Origin: an uncultured candidate division WWE3 bacterium
GTDB taxonomy: Bacteria; Patescibacteriota; WWE3; UBA101185; UBA10185
Assembly (NCBI GenBank): GCA_903879985.1
Contig: CAIRNR010000004.1
Coordinates: 96,762 to 160,761 of the forward strand
Length of the DNA stretch: 64,000 nt
Direction of reading: 5' to 3'
Position 1 is the first letter of the stretch. Every line of letters starts with the position of its first letter. A program made the translations under genes and the position numbers. Below are positions 16,136 to 28,409 of this stretch, piece after piece. The notes under the pieces were generated by a model. It saw nothing but the letters and a program-made list of their open reading frames with translations. It did not search any database and was not told the DNA's origin.

Positions 16136-17089
16136 GTGGCAAGAAGAAAACAACGTGCTAAAGATAACGATTTTTTACTATTAACGCTTCCTTTTTTGGC
16201 GGTAGGAATTTTGACGTTTGTTTTTTTCTCCCAACGAGCCAAAATACAATTGCCAAATAGCCTTGCTGATATACCAAATACCCCTCTTATTGTTGAAAAT
16301 AAAATGTCCGCTGCCGATATAGAAGCTGCCAAAAAGATTCAGGGTATGCGGGATGACTTTGCTGTACTTTCTACTAAGATCAAGCAGGAAAGTGGCGTTT
16401 ACGGTTTGTATATTAAGGACGAAAATCGAAAAATTGATTTTAAATATAACGAATCAGGCGAGTTTTATGCTGCATCTCTATATAAATTGCCCATAGCTGC
16501 TGCAGCATTAAAAGCAATAGAAAAAGGAAAACTAACTAAAGATACAAAAATCACTTACCTACCATACGATTATTCTTCCGGTACAGGTGAAATTAACACA
16601 TATAATTATGGTATCGAACTGCGAACCGAAGATGTTTTAACAGAGCTTCTAAAAAATTCAGATAATACCGCTCAAAGCATGATTTTACGTCAGCTTGATT
16701 TTAACTACGTCGAGGATACATTTAGTGCGTTAGTTCCTGATCCAAAAACAAGCACATATTTTAGATACAACACTTCCACGGCCTATGAAGTAGGTTACGT
16801 TGTAGATCAACTTTACTTTGGAAAATATCTAAATAGTGATAGCAAAGTGTTTTTAAAGGACACGTTAATTGGTACATCTTTTGAGGATCGTATAAGTGCT
16901 TACTTAAAACCGGGCCTTAAGTTTTCTCACAAAATAGGAAGCTGGCCTGAAACATGGCACGATTGTGGTGTAGTATATGGCAAATACGATCAAGTTGTAG
17001 TTTGTTTAATGAGCACCAGTGCTCCGTATGAAAACTTTTTAAACGTGTCCAAGCAGGTTGGAGAATTTATTTCTAAATATTATGAGTAG
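16136..17089 (+). CDS. class A beta-lactamase-like / penicillin-binding-protein-family serine hydrolase, membrane-anchored
   Basis: N-terminal TM anchor, then S-x-x-K (ASLYK), SDN (NSDNTAQ) and K(T/S)G-like (KIGSW) motifs in the canonical order. Ends with a TAG stop. Confidence 0.6.
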   Translation: MARRKQRAKDNDFLLLTLPFLAVGILTFVFFSQRAKIQLPNSLADIPNTPLIVENKMSAADIEAAKKIQGMRDDFAVLSTKIKQESGVYGLYIKDENRKIDFKYNESGEFYAASLYKLPIAAAALKAIEKGKLTKDTKITYLPYDYSSGTGEINTYNYGIELRTEDVLTELLKNSDNTAQSMILRQLDFNYVEDTFSALVPDPKTSTYFRYNTSTAYEVGYVVDQLYFGKYLNSDSKVFLKDTLIGTSFEDRISAYLKPGLKFSHKIGSWPETWHDCGVVYGKYDQVVVCLMSTSAPYENFLNVSKQVGEFISKYYE

Positions 17090-17375
17090 TACATTTCAAA
17101 GAACAATCGAAAATTTTGTATGTGAGAATTGCGGATACAGTGTTGAGGGAAATGGTTATACAAATCACTGTCCTAAATGTTTATGGAGCAAACACGTTGA
17201 TGTAAATCCAGGCGATCGTTTAAACGATTGCAAAGGTTTAATGAAACCAATTAGTTTTGAAATTAAAAATGGCGAAACTATTTTGTCACAGAAATGTGTG
17301 GTTTGCGGAGATGTTCGTCGCATAAAACTACTGCCAGGCGATAACACCGAAGTGCTATTTCAAATTGGCGTCTAA
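17082..17375 (+). CDS. zinc-ribbon protein
   Basis: Two CxxC pairs plus a third (CENCGYS..CPKC..CVVCG). The ATG at 17082 overlaps the upstream stop. Confidence 0.45.
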   Translation: MSSTFQRTIENFVCENCGYSVEGNGYTNHCPKCLWSKHVDVNPGDRLNDCKGLMKPISFEIKNGETILSQKCVVCGDVRRIKLLPGDNTEVLFQIGV

Positions 17376-17551: not shown

Positions 17552-17827
17552 ATGACCAAATTATACGTGGGTAACTTATCCTATTCTATGACCGATTCTA
17601 CCTTAGCCGACGCTTTCGCCGCCTATGGAACAGTCGCTTCAGCTACTATTATAATGGATAGAGCTTCAGGAAGAAGTAAAGGTTTCGGTTTCGTCGAATT
17701 AGAAGATGACGCAGCAGCTCAATCAGCTATTAACGAAATGAACGGTAAGGATGTTGACGGACGCAAGATCTCAGTATCAGTCGCTAGACCTCAAGAAGAT
17801 AGACCAAGAAATAACTTCAGAAGATAA
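17552..17827 (+). CDS. RRM-type RNA-binding protein
   Basis: RNP-2 (LYVGNL) and RNP-1 (KGFGFVEL) motifs. 91 aa, like bacterial Rbp proteins. Confidence 0.8.
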   Translation: MTKLYVGNLSYSMTDSTLADAFAAYGTVASATIIMDRASGRSKGFGFVELEDDAAAQSAINEMNGKDVDGRKISVSVARPQEDRPRNNFRR

Positions 17828-21058: not shown

Positions 21059-21553
21059 ATGTCTTTTTCAAACGATTCCGTAAATGCAATTTGGAAAAGG
21101 TCTGGAGGGCCATTGGCAAAATGTTTTACATGCGGAAGAAAATGTGCCGATGGTTGGAATCTAGATGCAAGTCACATGGATCACACGAAAAATCATGATT
21201 ACGATGATCCTACGCGAGGTCAACTTGAATGTCTTTGGTGCCATCTGACCAGACACGTTAGATATTATTATGAGTATTGTTTAAAGGAGGATAGTTCTAA
21301 GAAAAGGTTGAGAGAAAATCGTTATATGTGTCATGCATTGGTTATGCGTATTTTAGCAGGAGAAGATCGGCATGAGCGCGGACCAGTACCAAGAACACAT
21401 AAAGAAATTAAGACAACAAGGAAAGAGCTTGTGGTTTTGATTGAAGCAGAGTTTAAAAAAGCAAGAAAAGCCGCGAAAAAGAATAACTTTAAGGAAAAAC
21501 CACTTATAAAGGCGGAGGAGAAAATCTTAGAACTTTGCTACATGATCCGTTAG
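21059..21553 (+). CDS. HNH endonuclease
   Basis: CFTCGRKC..DASHMDH..N..(N)..LECLWCH, a zinc-finger-embedded H-N-H catalytic motif. Strong RBS (AAGGAGAG) before ATG 21059. Free-standing gene. Confidence 0.6.
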   Translation: MSFSNDSVNAIWKRSGGPLAKCFTCGRKCADGWNLDASHMDHTKNHDYDDPTRGQLECLWCHLTRHVRYYYEYCLKEDSSKKRLRENRYMCHALVMRILAGEDRHERGPVPRTHKEIKTTRKELVVLIEAEFKKARKAAKKNNFKEKPLIKAEEKILELCYMIR

Positions 21554-21588: not shown

Positions 21589-22929
21589 TTATCTGCTTTT
21601 TTTGTTTTCGTCTGCCACAAACTTTATGACCCGATGTAAAGCTTCAACCATTTTTTCTTTATTATTAGTAAATGTCAGCCTATACCAATTGCCACAATCT
21701 TTTGGCATATCAAAAGCTTCCCCTGGTGCCAAAACAACGCCTGTATTAAAAAACATTTTCTTAAAAAAATCGTATGTAGTACCTGTGTGGTCAATTTTTA
21801 AACCCATGTTTATTCCTGCATCAGGTACTATTGCTTTAATGTATGGGGAGGCCTTAAGTTCGCTTAAAACTAAGTCTCTATAATCAATATATTCTGAAAT
21901 TGTTTCTTTTACTTCTCTAGTGTATTGAGGAAGTTCCTTGGAATAGTTGCCTATAATTTCAAATTCACGTGAGTTTTCTTTTTTTCTAGAATCATCTATA
22001 TCGTAACCGCCTTTCATTAATGTTCTTAGCAAAATATCTTTAACTATAAAATTATCAAAAACTGTGGGCGGACACGTATATGATGTGTCTACAATCAAGT
22101 TTAGTTCGTTCATTAATGCTTCACTGCCAAGAACATATCCCATGCGTATTCCAGGGGCTGCACGATCCTTAGAAAATGCTTTAACTCGTATTATGTAGTC
22201 TTGGTTTTGGTTAACAGACCCAATATTTGGTACCGGTTTAAAACCCATGTCGTAAAATATTTCGTCAACAATTATGTAAATCTTTTTTTCGTTAGAAAGT
22301 GTAACGAGTCTTTCAAGTTCGGTTTCACTAAAGAATTTTCCAAATGGAAAGCTTGGGTTGGTTAAAATAATAAAACGAGTTTCAGAATCAATACTATTTT
22401 CAATGTCTTCTATTGTTGGCAAAAATCCTCGATCTTCTTTACCACAAACCTTTACGATTTTAAATTTCTTCCAAAGTACTCCTTCGTATACAGGGTATGC
22501 TGGTTGGACCAAAATGGCGTTGCCTTTGTATTTATAATGCTGAAGTAATACTTTTAGCGACATGGAAAAACCACCAGTAGAACTAAGCACCATAGCCACG
22601 TTATTTTCGGTAAACCGATTGATACCTTGAATATAGTTTTCGTATTTGGCTATAACATCCCGAACAAAAGGATTTCCTAGCTGGTGTGTGTAGCTGAAAT
22701 AAGATTTTTTAACTGATTCACTTAAAACTTCTGTTAAACATGTGGGAATTGGAAACTCATCGCGATCTACGTCACCTCCACCAAGATGCATGTAAAACCC
22801 AAGTTGTTTTTGAATTTTTCCGGAATAGTCTAACCAATCCCTAATATATTGGTGATAGTATCGAAAAGCGTAAGGTACACGATTATCTAAAATCGTCGGT
22901 GTATAAGAACCTTTAAGAGGTTTATTCAT
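21589..22929 (-). CDS. class I/II PLP-dependent aminotransferase
   Basis: AFSKDRAAPGIRMGYVLG matches the SxSKxxxxxGxRxG PLP-lysine motif. About 440 aa fold-type I. Separated from the upstream ORF by a 9-nt gap. Confidence 0.7.
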   Translation of the reverse strand: MNKPLKGSYTPTILDNRVPYAFRYYHQYIRDWLDYSGKIQKQLGFYMHLGGGDVDRDEFPIPTCLTEVLSESVKKSYFSYTHQLGNPFVRDVIAKYENYIQGINRFTENNVAMVLSSTGGFSMSLKVLLQHYKYKGNAILVQPAYPVYEGVLWKKFKIVKVCGKEDRGFLPTIEDIENSIDSETRFIILTNPSFPFGKFFSETELERLVTLSNEKKIYIIVDEIFYDMGFKPVPNIGSVNQNQDYIIRVKAFSKDRAAPGIRMGYVLGSEALMNELNLIVDTSYTCPPTVFDNFIVKDILLRTLMKGGYDIDDSRKKENSREFEIIGNYSKELPQYTREVKETISEYIDYRDLVLSELKASPYIKAIVPDAGINMGLKIDHTGTTYDFFKKMFFNTGVVLAPGEAFDMPKDCGNWYRLTFTNNKEKMVEALHRVIKFVADENKKSR

Positions 22930-22938
22930 GTTTAATTT

Positions 22939-24042
22939 CTAGTTAATTTGATCAAAGACCAGAGATTTATCCAAGTTTTTAGGATCCCTAATAAACGCTA
23001 TGGCCTCAGTTGTGCTTAAAATAGGAATTAAATATTTTTCACGTTCATCTAGGGCAACTCGTGGACAAAGTGTTGAAACTAAAATATCAAAATCTGTGCT
23101 ATTAATCGAATCAGAGTTAAAGAAATCTACCAGCACTATATCTGTTATGTATCCGCCTTTTTCATATTCTTTTTGAAGCTTTAATAATGATTCCATGCGA
23201 GATTGCCCAAACTTATTGCTGATTATAAAACCAACCTTTTTAGCTTTTTTAAGCTGCTGTTTGAGCGCTGTTAGTTTTGTTCTGTGTAGCTTCAGAAGTT
23301 TTTTATACTCATAAATATTCGTATCTCCTGACACCGGATCAAAGCATATAACATCTTTATGGGTAGCTAAAGACACAGGTAAAGCGTGAAAACCTCCGCC
23401 TTCAAACATTACAAACACGTCTACTTTGTCCATAACTTTTGTGGCCGAAGATGGATTACATCCTAAAACTTGACCTGCAAATCCAACGCGATCAGTACCT
23501 TTACCAACGAAAACATTTATACCTGCTGCGGTTAAAGCTTTTTTAGCTATTGGAACATTTTTAATATATTGAACTGAGCTTATTAATCCAATGTTTTCAA
23601 TTTTATTTTTACTTAAGTAAGCCACAGCTTTTGTAATTTGATCGTCGATACCGATTTTCATGTATAAAGGTACATAAACAACTTTAAATTTCTTTGGGAG
23701 AATTCTATTACTAATAGCAACGTTTCCAAAGTGAATTATTTTATTAATGCCTAATGTCTCGAATTGATAGTACTTAATGTCGCAAGCACCAAAGCAAGTG
23801 TCACCGGATAATATTATCTTTGTATTAAGAGATTTTTCCAGGTATGCGATTAAATCGTGTGAAAACTTTTTTAATCCTTCAGGGATTTCTAAGCCTACTA
23901 ATGCATCTTTTACAGTACCAAGCTCGGTTTTAATTCTATCTATTTCTAGTTCGTATTTGTCTAGGAAATCCTCAAAACTCTCGTAGTCGGGATGTAAACG
24001 ATTAACAAAAGGCTTAGAAGTATGATGATAAGGCTCAATCAT
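22939..24042 (-). CDS. Dph2-like (diphthamide-synthase-family / 3-amino-3-carboxypropyl transferase-like) protein, tentative
   Basis: ILSGDTCFGACDIKYY resembles the GD(V/T)xYGACC signature of the Dph1/Dph2 non-canonical radical-SAM family. Three spaced Cys (C83/C87, C195, C233) over about 360 aa fit its three-domain layout. The attribution is from memory of the Pfam signature only. Confidence 0.3.
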   Translation of the reverse strand: MIEPYHHTSKPFVNRLHPDYESFEDFLDKYELEIDRIKTELGTVKDALVGLEIPEGLKKFSHDLIAYLEKSLNTKIILSGDTCFGACDIKYYQFETLGINKIIHFGNVAISNRILPKKFKVVYVPLYMKIGIDDQITKAVAYLSKNKIENIGLISSVQYIKNVPIAKKALTAAGINVFVGKGTDRVGFAGQVLGCNPSSATKVMDKVDVFVMFEGGGFHALPVSLATHKDVICFDPVSGDTNIYEYKKLLKLHRTKLTALKQQLKKAKKVGFIISNKFGQSRMESLLKLQKEYEKGGYITDIVLVDFFNSDSINSTDFDILVSTLCPRVALDEREKYLIPILSTTEAIAFIRDPKNLDKSLVFDQIN

Positions 24043-24072
24043 TGGGTGTATTCTAGCACAAGATGTAAAGAG

Positions 24073-25089
24073 TTACTTAATGTTGTACCAACCGTCTGGA
24101 AACAACGAGTTTGAAACAGCCTCTCCGTATTCTCCTGTTTTACAATGGTTAATAGGTTGAAGCTTTATTTTTTGCCAACTTTGCACGCCTTGTAGAAATT
24201 CGCTTCCATCATTACTAACATTGGATATCTGCCATGGAAAGTTTCCTGTTCCGTCGTCTATTTTTATATTAACCTTATCAGCGCCATACTGTGTCCATGT
24301 AAGGAGCATTCCCGCTTTTCCTTCTTTTTGTGAGGATTGAAGTTTAATCCATGTTGGCGAATATGGCTTTTTCCAAAGGCAACGTGTATCTTTTTTAAAG
24401 GTTTTAACGTTTGCACTTGCACGTGATTCGGTCACTTCTCCCCAATATAAGCTTTGTGGATTGTTGAATTCTCCTTCTGAATTATTTAAGCCATTTAAAA
24501 TTGATGCGGTGTAGTTACCCGTGCCATCAGTTATGCCTACAGTTACTGGTTGAGAAAATTGATCGGGGTTATCGCCGTAGTTTAGTTGAAAATTTCCATT
24601 TGGATATAAAACTAATTCTGAGTTTACGCGTATAGAACTACCTAAAAAAGTATTTTCCCAACGTACAACAAATCTAGAAGAATTTGAATCAATATAAATG
24701 TCATCATTTGGGAAATCACCATTATATGTATCCATGTCAGCGTCGTTAACTAAGATTCTTTTAATTCCATCTGTATTATCCGTTATATCCATCTCATAGT
24801 TATCCATATTATCGTCATATCCTTCATCAGGTTGATCGCTAAAGGCAACGGATGAGTTTGATGTTACCCATATCTTATTGTAAGTTTTGCCATAAAAGGT
24901 AAATGGAAACGGAAGTGTGTATTCAAAAAATTCATCGTCTTCATGAAAATTTTGTGCTGTTCCCCCGGTAATAAATGATTGAGGTATTTGGTGTTCTACT
25001 GTGGTCTCATCGGCAGCATAGGCTAAAGGGCTAAGCGTGAAAACTGAAATTAGAGCTATGCTTAAAACGGCAGCAACTTTAATCTTCAT
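24073..25089 (-). CDS. secreted protein with the shared ~105-aa C-terminal domain
   Basis: Signal peptide at the internal Met (MKIKVAAVLSIALISVFTLSPLAYA/ADE). C-terminal KTFKKDTRCLWKKP..TW..LTWTQYGADKVNIKIDDGTGNFPW..NDG..VQSWQKIKLQPINHCKTG..GWYN is about 60% identical to the C-terminus of ORF 25701..28409. Confidence 0.55.
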   Translation of the reverse strand: MKIKVAAVLSIALISVFTLSPLAYAADETTVEHQIPQSFITGGTAQNFHEDDEFFEYTLPFPFTFYGKTYNKIWVTSNSSVAFSDQPDEGYDDNMDNYEMDITDNTDGIKRILVNDADMDTYNGDFPNDDIYIDSNSSRFVVRWENTFLGSSIRVNSELVLYPNGNFQLNYGDNPDQFSQPVTVGITDGTGNYTASILNGLNNSEGEFNNPQSLYWGEVTESRASANVKTFKKDTRCLWKKPYSPTWIKLQSSQKEGKAGMLLTWTQYGADKVNIKIDDGTGNFPWQISNVSNDGSEFLQGVQSWQKIKLQPINHCKTGEYGEAVSNSLFPDGWYNIK

Positions 25090-25139
25090 AGCATAATAAT
25101 GATAAAGTTTTGCTGAGAAGTCAACATGATAGATGATGC

Positions 25140-25145
25140 TATAAT
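25140..25145 (+). promoter_or_regulatory. -10 hexamer TATAAT; probable leaderless transcript for the peroxiredoxin gene
   Basis: TATAAT ends 6 nt before ATG 25152 with no SD in between. Confidence 0.3.
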
Positions 25146-25151
25146 TCAATT

Positions 25152-25718
25152 ATGACAAACCAAATAGGAAAACAAATAGCAAACGCAAATTTTGAGATTT
25201 ATTTCGAGGACAAATTCTCTAAAGTTAAGTTCACAGACTACATAGGAAAATGGTTAGTTCTTCTTTTTTATCCCGCTGATTTTACATTTGTATGCCCTAC
25301 TGAACTCAGTGAAGCGGCTTCCTTTTACGAACAGTTTAAAAACTTAAATGCTGAAATAATTAGCGTTTCCACCGACACTGTTTATAGTCATAAAGCCTGG
25401 CATGATTCATCTAAGGTTATAGCAACAATTTCCTATCCAATGGCAGCAGATAAAACCGGAGAACTTTGCAAAATGTTTGGTACCTATATCGAGGAAGAAG
25501 GTTTATCTTTACGCGGAACATTTATAATTGATCCGGACGGAAAATTAATTTCAAGTGATATTCACAGTAACGATATTGGCAGAAGCACCGAAGAAATATT
25601 ACGAAAATTACAAGCAGCAATTTATGTTAGAGAAAATCATGGTGAAGTTTGTCCTGCTTCATGGAAACCTGGTAAAGCTACACTAAAGCCAGGTGTGGAT
25701 TTAGTTGGAAAGATCTAA
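25152..25718 (+). CDS. 2-Cys peroxiredoxin (AhpC/TSA family)
   Basis: Peroxidatic Cys motif FTFVCPTE and a resolving Cys region (GEVCPASW). Confidence 0.85.
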   Translation: MTNQIGKQIANANFEIYFEDKFSKVKFTDYIGKWLVLLFYPADFTFVCPTELSEAASFYEQFKNLNAEIISVSTDTVYSHKAWHDSSKVIATISYPMAADKTGELCKMFGTYIEEEGLSLRGTFIIDPDGKLISSDIHSNDIGRSTEEILRKLQAAIYVRENHGEVCPASWKPGKATLKPGVDLVGKI

Positions 25719-28409
25719 GTTATACCAGCCGTTAGGATATAAATCCAAAGAAAATGGATTGCCATAGTCACCTGACTTACAATGATTGATTGGTTTTATC
25801 ATAATTTTCTGCCAGCTTTGTACATTTGGCAAAAAAATATGGCCGTCATTAGCTGTGTCTGAAATTTTCCATGGATAGTTTCCTGTGCCGTCGTCTATTT
25901 TTATATCCATTTTATCTGCACCAAATTGAACCCAAGTTAAATTCATTCCTTGTATCCCGTTATTAGTAGCCGATGTAGCAGATATCCATGTGGTTGCTTC
26001 AGGTTTTTTCCATAAACATCTAGTATCTTTCTTAAATGTTATTGAATTTTGAGACTGAATGTTTGAATCATCTGGAGCTATTTCAATTGTATAAATGATT
26101 CCGCGGTTAGTTTCGCCTCCTTGACTGGTCATACCATATAATTTGTTGTTATAAAATTTTACAGATCCGTAAGGAAAAGCGCCTTCCACAGTACTACGCA
26201 CAAAATCATGTAATAGTTTAAAGTTTGTTCCATCAGTTTTGATCGAATAGATTACTCCAGCAGAACTACTACCTCCAAATACCGTAGTCCCATATATTGT
26301 ATCGCCCTCAATATAGAGTGGTCCAAACCAAGGAGTATTTCCATTATTAAGATCAGATGAAAAATCATGCAAATCCTTAAAGTTATTTCCATCAGTATCT
26401 ACAGAATATAGCGAACCTCCGGCTAACGCACCATCGTTAGAAGTAGTGCCATAAAGAGTATTACCTACAATTGCTAAAGCAGCTTGGGGACCGGTACCAT
26501 AACTAATGTTATTAAAATCGTGCACTATTTCAAAATCAGTTCCATCAGGATTTATAGAATATACTACACCTAAGCCTAATTCTCCGCCTCTTGCCGCAAC
26601 CCCAAATAATTTTCCTTGATACTCAACCAAACCACCAACCGGGTTATATCCATCTGCAGCATTATTATTTGCAAATGAATAAACTACCTCAAAGTTCAAT
26701 CCATTGGGATCAAAACGATACAATGTACCAACATCGTTAGCACCGCCAGAATAAGTAGTTCCATATAATTTATTGCTATAAAAAATTATGCTACCAAAAG
26801 GTTGTGCGCCATCTCCGACAAACGCACTAAATGAATGCAGAACTGCAAAGTTATTTCCGTCAATATCAACAGAAAAAATCGTACCATAAGGATTCACGCC
26901 ATCCATGTTATTTACACCATATATTTTCCCATTGTAAATTAGTGGATTTCCTTGTGGCATATCACCTTCACTAGCATCTATCATACTGTGAATCGCGCTT
27001 ACATGATTATTTGAAGGATCAAATGAAAATATTGCTCCCACATAATTAGTGCCGCCATATTCTGAAAAACCATATAAAATTCCACCTGATTCAGTAAGGG
27101 TACTTGTAGGATTAAAGCCATACTGAGACTCATCAGTAGCAAATGAATGAACCACGTTGTAGGTATAAGGGTAAGTTGTTACATTCACAGTATTTCCCGC
27201 TGAAACATCTTGATCTGTTAAAACATCGACTTGAACTCTATAGTTAACGCCGTTTATAAATGTTTCGACTACATGACAAGAAAATGTATAAGGATCAGAC
27301 CCTTCAAAAGTACATGAACCCATATTTGGTAAAACGTAATAAGAACTTGTATCCAAGTTATAAACAGAATATTTTACAGAGGTTACGTTACCTGCATTGT
27401 TATATCCGCTAATTGTTCCAACAATAGTGGGGTGTGTTTCTTGTGAAAGATCTGAATTGTGAACATTACTAACATCTATGTATGGTTGACCGGAATTTGT
27501 TCCATAATATCTTGCTACAAAATCAAGTTGATTGCCTTTTAATTCAGCTTTTGGAATTTTTACCTCGCAGGTTTGGTGTTTATAGCTAACTTTACTAGTA
27601 ATTCCAAAGGCGCATTTTCCATACGTATCAGTGTAGTCATCAATTCTATATTCTTTTTGTAATTCTGCTGTAGCCGGGTTTTGTGCAATAACTTTTAGCC
27701 AGTCAGAACCGTATTCGTTTGTATTATCACCTGTAATATCAAAGGCCATGTAAACATAATCAGAATCGTCTTTCATGTAAATATAAGTTTTAGCCGATGG
27801 ATGCCCTGTGGTTGAATAAAACATTGGTGAATAGTCGGCATCAACTTTTCCGTCAACCTCCGTAAGTAGTCCATCAACATTTAGCGATCCGTTATTTTTA
27901 AATGTGTACGATTGATAAGGTGTTCCCCAATCAGGAAATCTAAACGCATTTATTTCATACGATTCATATTGGTTTGCCTTTAGTGTTAAAACTGATTTAC
28001 CTTTACAAACACTCGGGATATTCCAAAGTAGTTCCACCGGCATATCATGATTAATAATAACGTTTTGGTCATCGGCACTGATATCGGCTAAAACGCTTTC
28101 GCCTGATTGTACATATTTTGCATACTCAGGTGTGATTGTTTTACCGCAAGCATCCAATTTTATTAAATCTATATCAGCGTAAGTTGTGTTCTCTTGGACA
28201 ATTTGAATTTTAACTTGTCCGTTTTTTGGTGTTACAACAAAGGTTTTTGTTTGATACGTGATTGTAAAAGGCTCCTTATAAATATCTGTCCATTTGCCGT
28301 CGGTTTCTTGTGAAATATTAAAAGTACCTTGTGCTGCTTTGACAGCGGGAAAAGAAAACAAAGCCATGATAAAAACTAATGCCAATGAAGCTCTCAGATA
28401 TTTAAGCAT
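25701..28409 (-). CDS. large secreted beta-propeller repeat (GloVer/TIGR03803-like) protein with the shared C-terminal domain
   Basis: Signal peptide (..FPAVKA/AQG). Seven ~45-aa repeats of xLYG(T/V)Txx(G)Gxxx(G)x(I/V)(Y/F)S(I/V)xxDGxNFxxLH(D/S)F. C-terminal ITFKKDTRCLWKKP..W..KIDDGTGNYPW..INHCKSG..GWYN domain. Confidence 0.6.
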   Translation of the reverse strand: MLKYLRASLALVFIMALFSFPAVKAAQGTFNISQETDGKWTDIYKEPFTITYQTKTFVVTPKNGQVKIQIVQENTTYADIDLIKLDACGKTITPEYAKYVQSGESVLADISADDQNVIINHDMPVELLWNIPSVCKGKSVLTLKANQYESYEINAFRFPDWGTPYQSYTFKNNGSLNVDGLLTEVDGKVDADYSPMFYSTTGHPSAKTYIYMKDDSDYVYMAFDITGDNTNEYGSDWLKVIAQNPATAELQKEYRIDDYTDTYGKCAFGITSKVSYKHQTCEVKIPKAELKGNQLDFVARYYGTNSGQPYIDVSNVHNSDLSQETHPTIVGTISGYNNAGNVTSVKYSVYNLDTSSYYVLPNMGSCTFEGSDPYTFSCHVVETFINGVNYRVQVDVLTDQDVSAGNTVNVTTYPYTYNVVHSFATDESQYGFNPTSTLTESGGILYGFSEYGGTNYVGAIFSFDPSNNHVSAIHSMIDASEGDMPQGNPLIYNGKIYGVNNMDGVNPYGTIFSVDIDGNNFAVLHSFSAFVGDGAQPFGSIIFYSNKLYGTTYSGGANDVGTLYRFDPNGLNFEVVYSFANNNAADGYNPVGGLVEYQGKLFGVAARGGELGLGVVYSINPDGTDFEIVHDFNNISYGTGPQAALAIVGNTLYGTTSNDGALAGGSLYSVDTDGNNFKDLHDFSSDLNNGNTPWFGPLYIEGDTIYGTTVFGGSSSAGVIYSIKTDGTNFKLLHDFVRSTVEGAFPYGSVKFYNNKLYGMTSQGGETNRGIIYTIEIAPDDSNIQSQNSITFKKDTRCLWKKPEATTWISATSATNNGIQGMNLTWVQFGADKMDIKIDDGTGNYPWKISDTANDGHIFLPNVQSWQKIMIKPINHCKSGDYGNPFSLDLYPNGWYNLDLSN

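Follow-up and report, generated by a model that had tools for sequence, protein, structure and literature searches.

A Dph2-family enzyme has been repurposed in a bacterium of the candidate phyla radiation (CPR), as our analysis of one stretch of DNA indicates. The stretch, called the window here, is 64,000 nucleotides long (positions 96,762 to 160,761 of contig CAIRNR010000004.1, assembly GCA_903879985.1, from an uncultured candidate division WWE3 bacterium). It encodes a genuine member of the Dph2 family and, directly behind it, an enzyme dependent on pyridoxal 5'-phosphate (PLP). The only function known for Dph2/Dph1, as one preprint describes it, is to start diphthamide synthesis on elongation factor 2 (EF-2) (10.1101/2024.02.01.577332). 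We propose that the enzyme would transfer a 3-amino-3-carboxypropyl (ACP) radical derived from S-adenosylmethionine (SAM) to a small-molecule acceptor other than EF-2, and that the PLP enzyme would act next. Taken as a whole, we hold this reading to be somewhat better than evenly balanced. The two genes, together called the cassette, are arranged as follows, with the spacer read from the sequence.

22939..24042, minus strand: Dph2-like [4Fe-4S] SAM enzyme of 367 aa, a predicted ACP-radical transferase (PF01866, TIGR03682, PDB matches, AlphaFold2 model)

22930..22938, minus strand: 9-nt spacer from the stop codon of the Dph2-like gene to the start codon of the PLP-enzyme gene

21589..22929, minus strand: 446-aa PLP-dependent enzyme with the fold of class I aminotransferases (PF00155; nearest solved relative PseP/SbzP)

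The 367-aa protein is a true member of the Dph2 family, and the match is far beyond chance. The first-pass annotation had placed an open reading frame (ORF) with a Dph1/Dph2-like motif at 22939..24042 and had tentatively assigned it to that family, to be checked with PF01866 and by structure comparison with Pyrococcus horikoshii Dph2. The frame is indeed present there on the minus strand, with the motif ILSGDTCFGACDIKYY as residues 77-92, and the protein matches PF01866 with E=4e-55 and 187.8 bits (cut-off 33.2) over profile positions 2-293 of 302. It also passes the cut-offs of the NCBIfam models TIGR03682 (the archaeal Dph2 equivalog; 236.3 bits, cut-off 202.8) and TIGR00322 (194.1 bits, cut-off 35), and it stays below that of the eukaryotic DPH2 model TIGR00272 (29.8 bits, cut-off 184). 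The solved Dph2 structures 6bxm, 6q2d and 3lzc match it at E-values from 5e-39 to 3e-34 in a sequence search of the PDB. The AlphaFold2 model (predicted local distance difference test (pLDDT) 90.6, predicted template modelling score (pTM) 0.89) agrees in fold with P. horikoshii Dph2 as well: Foldseek aligned it to 6bxn, 6q2e, 3lzd and 6q2d with E-values of 1e-26 to 1e-29 and template modelling (TM) scores of 0.85-0.91. These structures come from Ca. Methanoperedens, M. smithii and P. horikoshii and have the three-domain fold, and the next fold class reached a TM score of only ~0.3.

The protein belongs to a rare clade with a single origin. A word-indexed search of 5.8 billion proteins gave 54 matches, five of them close (64, 59, 52, 49 and 44% identity) and the others at no more than 34%. 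When 1.84 billion representatives were searched exhaustively with a profile, 1668 matched at E<=1e-3, among which P0002, P0006 and P0067-P0070 scored 325-644 bits, P0071-P0075 formed a shoulder and the archaeal sequences a plateau at ~208 bits. Only ten representatives of the clade are found among the 1.84 billion proteins. In a maximum-likelihood tree of 54 rows the ten form one monophyletic group (ultrafast bootstrap 100, SH-aLRT 99) on a stem of 0.49, and P0071 is their sister (100/97). The clade is placed in an unresolved region of the tree with Thermoplasmatota, Methanosarcinales and a Micrarchaeota sequence. As to the donor lineage, the nearest named sequences, from Thermoplasmata and Micrarchaeota, stand in a polytomy. 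We found no relatives among 69 pattern matches in viral_contigs, and no fused forms of the protein among proteins of 644-2000 aa, the latter being weak evidence.

The catalytic core of the Dph2-like protein appears to be intact, as judged from the conservation of both its cluster site and its SAM site. The predicted ligands of the [4Fe-4S] cluster are the following.

23782..23784, minus strand: Cys87 codon, first cluster ligand (second Cys of CFGAC), aligned with position 95 of the tagged 3lzc chain

23458..23460, minus strand: Cys195 codon, second cluster ligand (GQVLGCN), aligned with 3lzc position 199

23065..23067, minus strand: Cys326 codon, third cluster ligand (Cys-Pro-Arg motif, CPR), aligned with 3lzc position 323

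There is one such cysteine in each of the three domains and no CxxxCxxC motif, and all three cysteines are invariant in 30/30 clade and archaeal sequences. After subtraction of a 36-residue tag, the three 3lzc positions presumably are C59, C163 and C287 of P. horikoshii Dph2 (PhDph2), the cluster-ligand numbers reportedly being those of Zhang et al. 2010. Our predecessor's guess at the ligands needs correction: C87 and C195 stand in ligand columns, and C83 (the first Cys of CFGAC) and C233, which it had also named, are conserved within the clade and lie outside these columns, the third column being that of C326 in the 3lzc alignment. The residues contacting SAM in CmnDph2 are given as G158, H180, Q237, V265, R285, D289 and D290 in the portion of the source that we used (PMC10669111). 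Through the alignment with chain 6bxm, with an offset of +4, they map to G194, H219, Q280, F308, R328, D332 and E333, so that 5/7 are identical and 2/7 conservative. R328, next to Cys326 of the CPR motif, corresponds to the SAM-pocket Arg285 of CmnDph2.

The acceptor side of the clade enzymes appears to have been rebuilt, while the cofactor columns are common with archaea. We compared the ten clade members with 190 archaeal Dph2 sequences. The His of HFGH, present in 97% of the archaeal sequences, is Asn107 in 10/10 clade members (H107N), and the Gly before the GxFH motif, present in 81%, is Glu214 in 10/10 (G214E). An Asp found in 82% of the archaeal sequences is Glu333 in 9/10, and a Gln found in 92% is Glu52 in 7/10. 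N162, D230, C233 and F234 are invariant in the clade only. Of the switches, the sister sequence P0071 has only N107.

The clade has in addition an N-terminal peptide of its own.

23989..24042, minus strand: codons 1-18, clade-specific N-terminal peptide MIEPYHHTSKPF..., with His6 and Thr8 conserved (alignment, AlphaFold2)

His6 and Thr8 are found in 9/10 clade members, the tenth being truncated, and the column is gapped in ~95% of the 190 archaeal sequences. Its variants within the clade read PYHHTS(K/R)P, HYTFRP and PHHT. Residues 1-18 are the only low-confidence part of the AlphaFold2 model (pLDDT <50) and are predicted to be flexible.

The host offers no EF-2 for the enzyme to modify. The assembly, referred to as G000, has 1,010,933 bp in 8 contigs, is 97.78% complete with 0.08% contamination, and its organism is inferred to be a WWE3-type CPR bacterium. 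The window itself encodes RelA/SpoT, a MurA/AroA-family enzyme, a bacterial tRNA-guanine transglycosylase (TGT), leucyl-tRNA synthetase (LeuRS), DinB, MacB/HlyD and 8 tRNAs. The single EFG_IV protein in the 97.8%-complete genome is a bacterial elongation factor G (EF-G) of 694 aa, and no EF-2 is found in it. Genome G495 of the same GTDB family, which encodes the relative with 64% identity, likewise has bacterial-type GTPases only. Dph5 (TIGR00522) and Dph6 (PF01902) have 0 matches in G000, and all four archaea among our control genomes match both. A bacterium with EF-G only and without Dph5 or Dph6 therefore needs a different acceptor, which is what the first-pass annotation had anticipated. 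In public annotation the clade proteins carry the name 'diphthamide biosynthesis enzyme Dph2', which almost certainly misstates their function where the bacterium has no EF-2. The NCBI entry of the relative with 64% identity reads 'Dph2 [candidate division WWE3 bacterium]', and it is this entry, together with the GTDB family common to both genomes, that places G000 among the WWE3-type CPR bacteria.

The acceptor might nevertheless be a protein histidine. It could be the enzyme's own His6 (PYHHTSKP), entering the same or the partner's active site, or a His of another bacterial protein, for instance the conserved one at the tip of EF-G domain IV, and the PLP enzyme would then act on protein-bound ACP through its free alpha-amino group and alpha-carboxylate, as Dph5 does on ACP-EF2. 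We judge this explanation, the main rival of our own, unlikely, while seeing some substance in it. The only acceptor known for Dph2, in the accounts of two sources consulted in part, is a protein His (PMC3541065; 10.1101/2024.02.01.577332). The H-x-T peptide occurs in 9/10 clade members, is absent from archaeal Dph2 and is predicted to be disordered as a substrate tail would be, although the AlphaFold2 monomer model leaves this tail undocked. It is also in favour of a protein acceptor that the three loci with genomic context have no conserved ORF for a separate precursor peptide. Against it, self-modification would be stoichiometric with no obvious need for a PLP enzyme or an importer. EF-G does retain the DGS(F/Y)HEVDSSE loop, but its tip loops do not differ between genomes with and without the cassette, 0 of 14 carrier-specific columns lie in them, and EF-G is universal while the cassette is found in 2/134 genomes. 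We know of no PLP enzyme that acts on a protein-bound residue, which we also count against this explanation. EF-G as an adapted target was rejected, its domain IV loops having no carrier-specific change.

The Dph2-like gene is distributed in a patchy manner in the lineage. PF01866 scores above the cut-off in one of the 401 sampled genomes of the phylum, which is G000, and a Dph2-like protein is found in two of the 134 genomes of the class, G000 and G495. By EF-G identity, nine members of the GTDB family (79-85%) are nearer to G000 than G495 is (78%), and all nine are without a Dph2-like gene. The distribution is therefore patchy, since these closer relatives lack the gene and the more distant G495 has it.

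Such a distribution could mean that the gene is a functionless relic of an archaeal transfer, or that archaeal DNA was misbinned or misassembled into a bacterial genome; we consider this highly improbable. It is true that the family is otherwise archaeal and eukaryotic, that PF01866 matches only the 4 archaea among 14 control genomes, and that the loci listed from the species-genome collection, at least 80, are all archaeal with no more than 36% identity, counts from the species-genome and metagenome scans being lower bounds. However, the gene lies in the middle of its contig (~119-121 kb of 182 kb), between bacterial genes and tRNAs, with a guanine-plus-cytosine (GC) content that matches the surroundings, in an assembly with the low contamination given above. 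The G495 copy lies within a single bacterial contig of 897 kb. The stretch also recurs in lake-water runs of a second study; 6 runs with the stretch are listed, with no RNA run among them. The mid-contig position, the matching GC content and the recurrence in the second study make contamination very unlikely as the source of the gene. Against a relic stand also the purifying selection on both genes of the cassette, described below, and the catalytic residues, all of them kept across a deep clade.

The partner has the fold of a class I aminotransferase and, by sequence, an affinity to PseP/SbzP. It had been annotated as a class I/II aminotransferase in the first pass. The fold assignment stands (PF00155, E=7.5e-34, 117.9 bits, cut-off 19.7). 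The activity implied by the name does not follow, as no named transaminase equivalog reaches its cut-off among the best 25 of the 68 NCBIfam families matching the protein, and its nearest solved relative is PseP/SbzP. The best NCBIfam match is the cyclodehydratase GntC, with 150.7 bits, far below the cut-off of 415. In the PDB, PseP (8k3h) comes first both with the single sequence (E=7.9e-26, versus 2.5e-21 for the next) and with the family profile (E=3.5e-41 and 144.5 bits, versus 1e-36 and 129.7 bits). It gives the only end-to-end alignment, residues 47-405 with the single sequence and 47-439 with the profile, which includes an insertion of ~50 residues behind the aminotransferase core. 1-Aminocyclopropane-1-carboxylate (ACC) synthases are also among the PDB matches. 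The AlphaFold2 model of the enzyme has a pLDDT of 86.8. A protein atlas returned generic aminotransferase clusters only, which we take as leads: a CPR cluster, and an actinobacterial cluster of 463-aa proteins that is the best structural match. We therefore describe the partner only as a class I-fold PLP enzyme with PseP/SbzP affinity.

The PLP-binding residues of the partner appear to be in place.

22168..22170, minus strand: Lys254 codon, predicted PLP (Schiff-base) lysine, aligned with PseP K629 and invariant in 10/10

K254, D222, R262 and R417 are invariant in 10/10 family members; by the usual roles in this fold, the first three would be PLP-binding and R417 the Arg that holds the alpha-carboxylate. 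K629 is the internal-aldimine PLP lysine of PseP, as reported in the part of the work that we drew on (PMC13518217).

The two genes are inherited as a pair. Our genomic context comes from 3 loci: the window, L085 (which is G495) and L086 (a metagenome contig of 7.7 kb). The first-pass annotation had the PLP gene 9 nt away on the same strand, as is borne out by the coordinates above, and it asked about conservation of the operon in related genomes; the PLP gene stands directly 3' of the Dph2-like gene in 3/3 loci, so the pairing is kept wherever the context of a related locus is available. The two genes are separated by 9 nt in the window and by 104 nt in L086, and in L085 they overlap by 4 nt; the PLP proteins of L085 and L086 are 66% and 53% identical to that of the window. 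A PLP orthologue is found in 2/134 genomes of the class, exactly the same two that have the Dph2-like protein. The PLP family equals the Dph2-like clade in rarity, its search giving 12 matches, five at 48-54% identity and two at 28-29%, and P0003 (Dph2-like) and P0057 (PLP) both have a longest contig of 11,483 bp. Between the three loci the proportion of synonymous differences (pS) is 0.80-0.87, which is saturated, and that of nonsynonymous differences (pN) is 0.22-0.34. The Dph2-like and PLP genes diverge in step, with nonsynonymous distances (dN) of 0.29/0.26, 0.40/0.39 and 0.44/0.38. Since pN is far below pS and the dN values run in step, the data indicate purifying selection on a co-inherited pair. 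A complex prediction for the two proteins gave a score of 0.00, was run without controls and is not evidence either way.

The two enzymes need not work in series. With PLP as its cofactor, PseP/SbzP binds SAM, releases methylthioadenosine (MTA) by elimination and joins the C4 unit to beta-NAD (PMC13518217; PMC10491745), and Mur24 and SbzP are described as SAM-using PLP enzymes (PMC10491745), both papers being known to us in part. The partner might likewise use SAM itself, as SbzP, Mur24 and ACC synthase do, by way of a vinylglycine-type PLP intermediate; the Dph2-like enzyme would then supply or modify the second substrate, or the two would be alternative routes to the same C4 unit. We find this possibility decidedly unlikely. 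PseP/SbzP is the nearest solved relative, the aligned insertion is not found in ordinary transaminases, the PLP lysine is aligned, ACC synthases are among the matches, and the same partly consulted review documents several SAM-accepting PLP enzymes (PMC10491745). R466 of PseP, which binds SAM and NAD, is, however, Asn86 in the partner, and of the other residues reported as critical for binding these two, F457 and Y699 are only conservatively kept (as Y77 and F323), with Y418 and F413 falling outside the aligned part. The fold search does not part PseP from transaminases, and two SAM-cleaving enzymes would be costly in an organism that is unable to make SAM.

The SAM of the host appears to come from outside the cell. 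The SAM synthetase MetK was found in G000 in neither its bacterial (TIGR01034) nor its archaeal form (PF01941), and 84/86 genomes of the GTDB family lack it, a bacterial MetK being present in 2/86. The lineage keeps SAM-dependent enzymes, including the RlmN-like enzyme, methyltransferases and the Dph2-like protein, and SAM must therefore be scavenged or imported. We found no MTA/S-adenosylhomocysteine nucleosidase or phosphorylase of the PNP_UDP_1 family in G000. Maturation of Fe-S proteins would be available in the host, since the window encodes another radical SAM enzyme, the RlmN-like one.

An island with an energy-coupling factor (ECF) importer accompanies the cassette in related loci. In L085 and L086 the island comprises a PF09819 S-component, a fused double ECF ATPase, a CbiQ-type T component and a two-domain methyltransferase (MTase) of the MTS type. 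The same four genes are found in G000 on contig C4 at 43.7-48.5 kb (L167 3739-8497), outside the window. PF09819, two copies of PF00005 and PF02361 occur together in G000, G495, G442, G463 and L086, which is the make-up of a group I ECF importer. The double ATPase scores 282 bits against TIGR04520/04521, slightly under the cut-offs. The only solved relative of the S-component is YkoE (E=8.7e-6), a group I S-component that was solved with a vitamin substrate, according to the part of the source that we consulted (PMC5037267). Among the 86 genomes of the GTDB family the S-component is found in 4 (G000, G495, G442, G463) and the MTase in 5 (the same four and G461), and the MTase adjoins the S-component or transporter in all 4 genomes with the S-component. 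Both carriers of the Dph2-like gene, G000 and G495, also carry the island; the cassette stands directly upstream of the S gene in G495 and between the T and MTase genes in L086. These data suggest, without being proof, that the cassette is functionally linked to some imported molecule of the micronutrient kind.

Several observations on the island stand apart from this link. It is rare (4-5/86) and scattered by EF-G relatedness, and was seen at L167, L177, L178, L179 and L086. The N-terminal half of the MTase (~250 aa) has no family match. A 254-aa nucleotidyltransferase like KNTase/ANT(4')-I lies directly upstream of the S gene at L177 9086-9850 (G463) and L178 9103-9867 (G442); the KNTase/ANT(4')-like protein scores 107 bits, below the cut-off of 350, and stands in the island carriers that lack the cassette. 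An NTP_transf_2/DUF4037 protein lies two genes upstream of the Dph2-like gene in G495, where an 84-aa ORF between the PLP and S-component genes has no Pfam match and no similarity to the 164-aa ORF of the window. Loss of MetK was considered as a link to the importer island and rejected, because the 84/86 genomes lack MetK irrespective of the island.

We propose the following course for the reaction. The [4Fe-4S] cluster would be bound via C87, C195 and C326, with SAM bound in the geometry of Dph2. Reductive cleavage of SAM would give MTA and the ACP radical, which would be passed to an acceptor other than EF-2. This acceptor is proposed because the host has neither EF-2 nor the later diphthamide enzymes and because the acceptor side has been rebuilt. 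The likeliest candidate may be a small molecule, electron-poor and heteroaromatic, that enters the cell through the YkoE-like ECF transporter. The PLP enzyme would probably act next: it would take the ACP adduct at its free alpha-amino-acid end and either transaminate it or carry out ring closure or gamma-chemistry. Nicotianamine aminotransferase is a class I transaminase that acts on an ACP amino group. We speculate further that the ACP radical might add in the Minisci style to an imported heteroaromatic compound, such as a thiazolium or pyrimidine of the thiamine/hydroxymethylpyrimidine (HMP) type or nicotinamide, followed by PLP-dependent ring closure or transamination; so specific a version is, in our estimate, improbable. 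If it were true, the cassette would make a metabolite from SAM that is new, be it an antivitamin or an analogue of a cofactor, and the reaction would be the first of the Dph2 family outside EF-2 and a radical counterpart of the SbzP annulation.

A number of points weigh against the proposed transfer to a small molecule followed by a PLP step. The evidence is computational throughout, and the genomic context comes from three loci only. A protein or self acceptor would agree with the flexible and conserved N-terminal His peptide no less well than a small molecule would. P0005, one of the close relatives (49% identity), has R328C and D332N in its SAM pocket (CPCIVLNERE); its cluster Cys, all three, are retained, as is its N-terminal His peptide, and it may be a degenerate or divergent copy. 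As for the partner, the preference for PseP over transaminases is modest (15 bits with the profile), Foldseek ranks PseP only 8 (E=1.4e-24) among class I aminotransferases at 6e-26 to 1e-22, and the Asn86 in place of R466 counts here too. In G000 the island and the cassette are ~72 kb apart. Two genomes, G442 and G463, have the island without the cassette, and the transporter therefore has a role of its own. The adjacency of cassette and island in the other loci could be inherited synteny, and the co-occurrence counts, being taken from genomes that are related, lack independence. With no MetK in 84/86 genomes and no PNP_UDP_1 enzyme in G000, the proposal does not account for the supply of SAM and the disposal of MTA.

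The cassette may have a promoter of its own, as one element read from the sequence suggests.

24050..24058, minus strand: TGcTAGAAT, an extended -10-like element that ends 7 nt before the ATG of the Dph2-like gene (sequence reading only)

It is possibly the promoter of the Dph2-like gene, which would give a leaderless transcript or one with a very short leader. Scanning the region for consensus promoters gave 17, no more than chance would (16.9 expected), and 0 terminators.

The other neighbors of the cassette in the window are not conserved beside it. Two genes for secreted proteins lie upstream, at 24073-25149 and 25701-28409 on the minus strand. The two proteins have a common C-terminal domain of ~105 aa (…FKKDTRCLWKKP…INHCK(T/S)G(E/D)YG…) with no Pfam match. 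The gap of 30 nt from the first of these genes (24073-25149) to the Dph2-like gene is not kept in relatives. On the other side, a 164-aa ORF (21059-21553, plus strand) faces the PLP gene in convergent orientation. Its product, with many Cys/His pairs (CFTCGRKC...SHMDH...CLWCH) and a C-terminal half that is basic, resembles an HNH or zinc-finger protein; it has no Pfam match, and neither L085 nor L086 has a counterpart. Further off, at a distance of a few kb, lie genes for an RNHCP-domain zinc-ribbon protein of 105 aa (17058-17375, plus strand) and an RNA-binding protein of 91 aa with an RNA recognition motif (RRM) (17552-17827, plus strand), and neither is conserved beside the cassette in relatives.

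The pairing appears to be new to the literature that we searched. In a search of main texts we found no report of an operon of Dph2-like and PLP genes, none with both WWE3 and diphthamide and, among the papers listed, none linking CPR bacteria with Dph2. Two papers, in the sections seen, regard Dph2 as a protein of archaea and eukaryotes and name no homologue from bacteria there (PMC6143161, PMC3541065). Dph2 and ArsL are given as the only ACP-radical enzymes in the portion of the preprint used here, the acceptor of ArsL being arsenite (10.1101/2024.02.01.577332). Dph2/Dph1 is one of only two enzyme types known to make this radical. With its intact cofactor sites, the purifying selection, hosts without EF-2, a rebuilt acceptor side and the constant PLP partner, the clade offers a direct handle on a second reaction of the family. 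Such a reaction would widen the scope of non-canonical radical SAM enzymes, and it would show a rare specialized metabolism that consumes SAM in ultra-small CPR bacteria apparently unable to make it.

The closest known system is the archaeal Dph2 homodimer (3lzc/3lzd, 6bxk-6bxo, 6q2d/6q2e). The clade enzyme has the same family membership, three-domain fold, one cluster Cys per domain and 5/7 of the SAM pocket. It differs from archaeal Dph2 in H107N, G214E and D333E, in the added N-terminal His peptide and in its long stem; it is at most 36% identical, is obligately paired with a PLP enzyme, and lives in a host without EF-2, Dph5 and Dph6. SbzP/PseP (PsePQ, 8k3h/8k3i), which performs a [3+2]-annulation with SAM and beta-NAD, is the best solved match of the partner, with K629 corresponding to K254. 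The identity is, however, only ~21%, R466 is replaced by Asn86, and no SbzQ-like oxygenase is fused or nearby here.

Three further systems bear comparison, as far as the sources seen in part describe them. ArsL, of the arsinothricin pathway, is bacterial, converts SAM to MTA and the ACP radical, and has a small-molecule acceptor and a second tailoring enzyme; unlike the enzyme in the window it has a CxxxCxxC radical-SAM fold and an RCCLKC tail, and its partner is the methyltransferase ArsM and not a PLP enzyme. MccD/MccE of microcin C couple ACP transfer from SAM with a PLP step on the amino-acid end of ACP, and CntL of staphylopine transfers ACP onto free histidine (PMC10491745). These transfers are nucleophilic, on a methyltransferase or nicotianamine synthase (NAS) fold without an Fe-S cluster, and the PLP domain of MccE is a decarboxylase domain rather than a class I aminotransferase fold. 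The YkoEDC group I ECF importer (YkoE, 5edl) has, like the importer of the island, a single operon for a PF09819 S-component, a fused double ATPase and a T component of the CbiQ type. The two are only very distantly similar, and the island importer always stands beside a two-domain MTS methyltransferase and is rare in the GTDB family, with 4/86 genomes.

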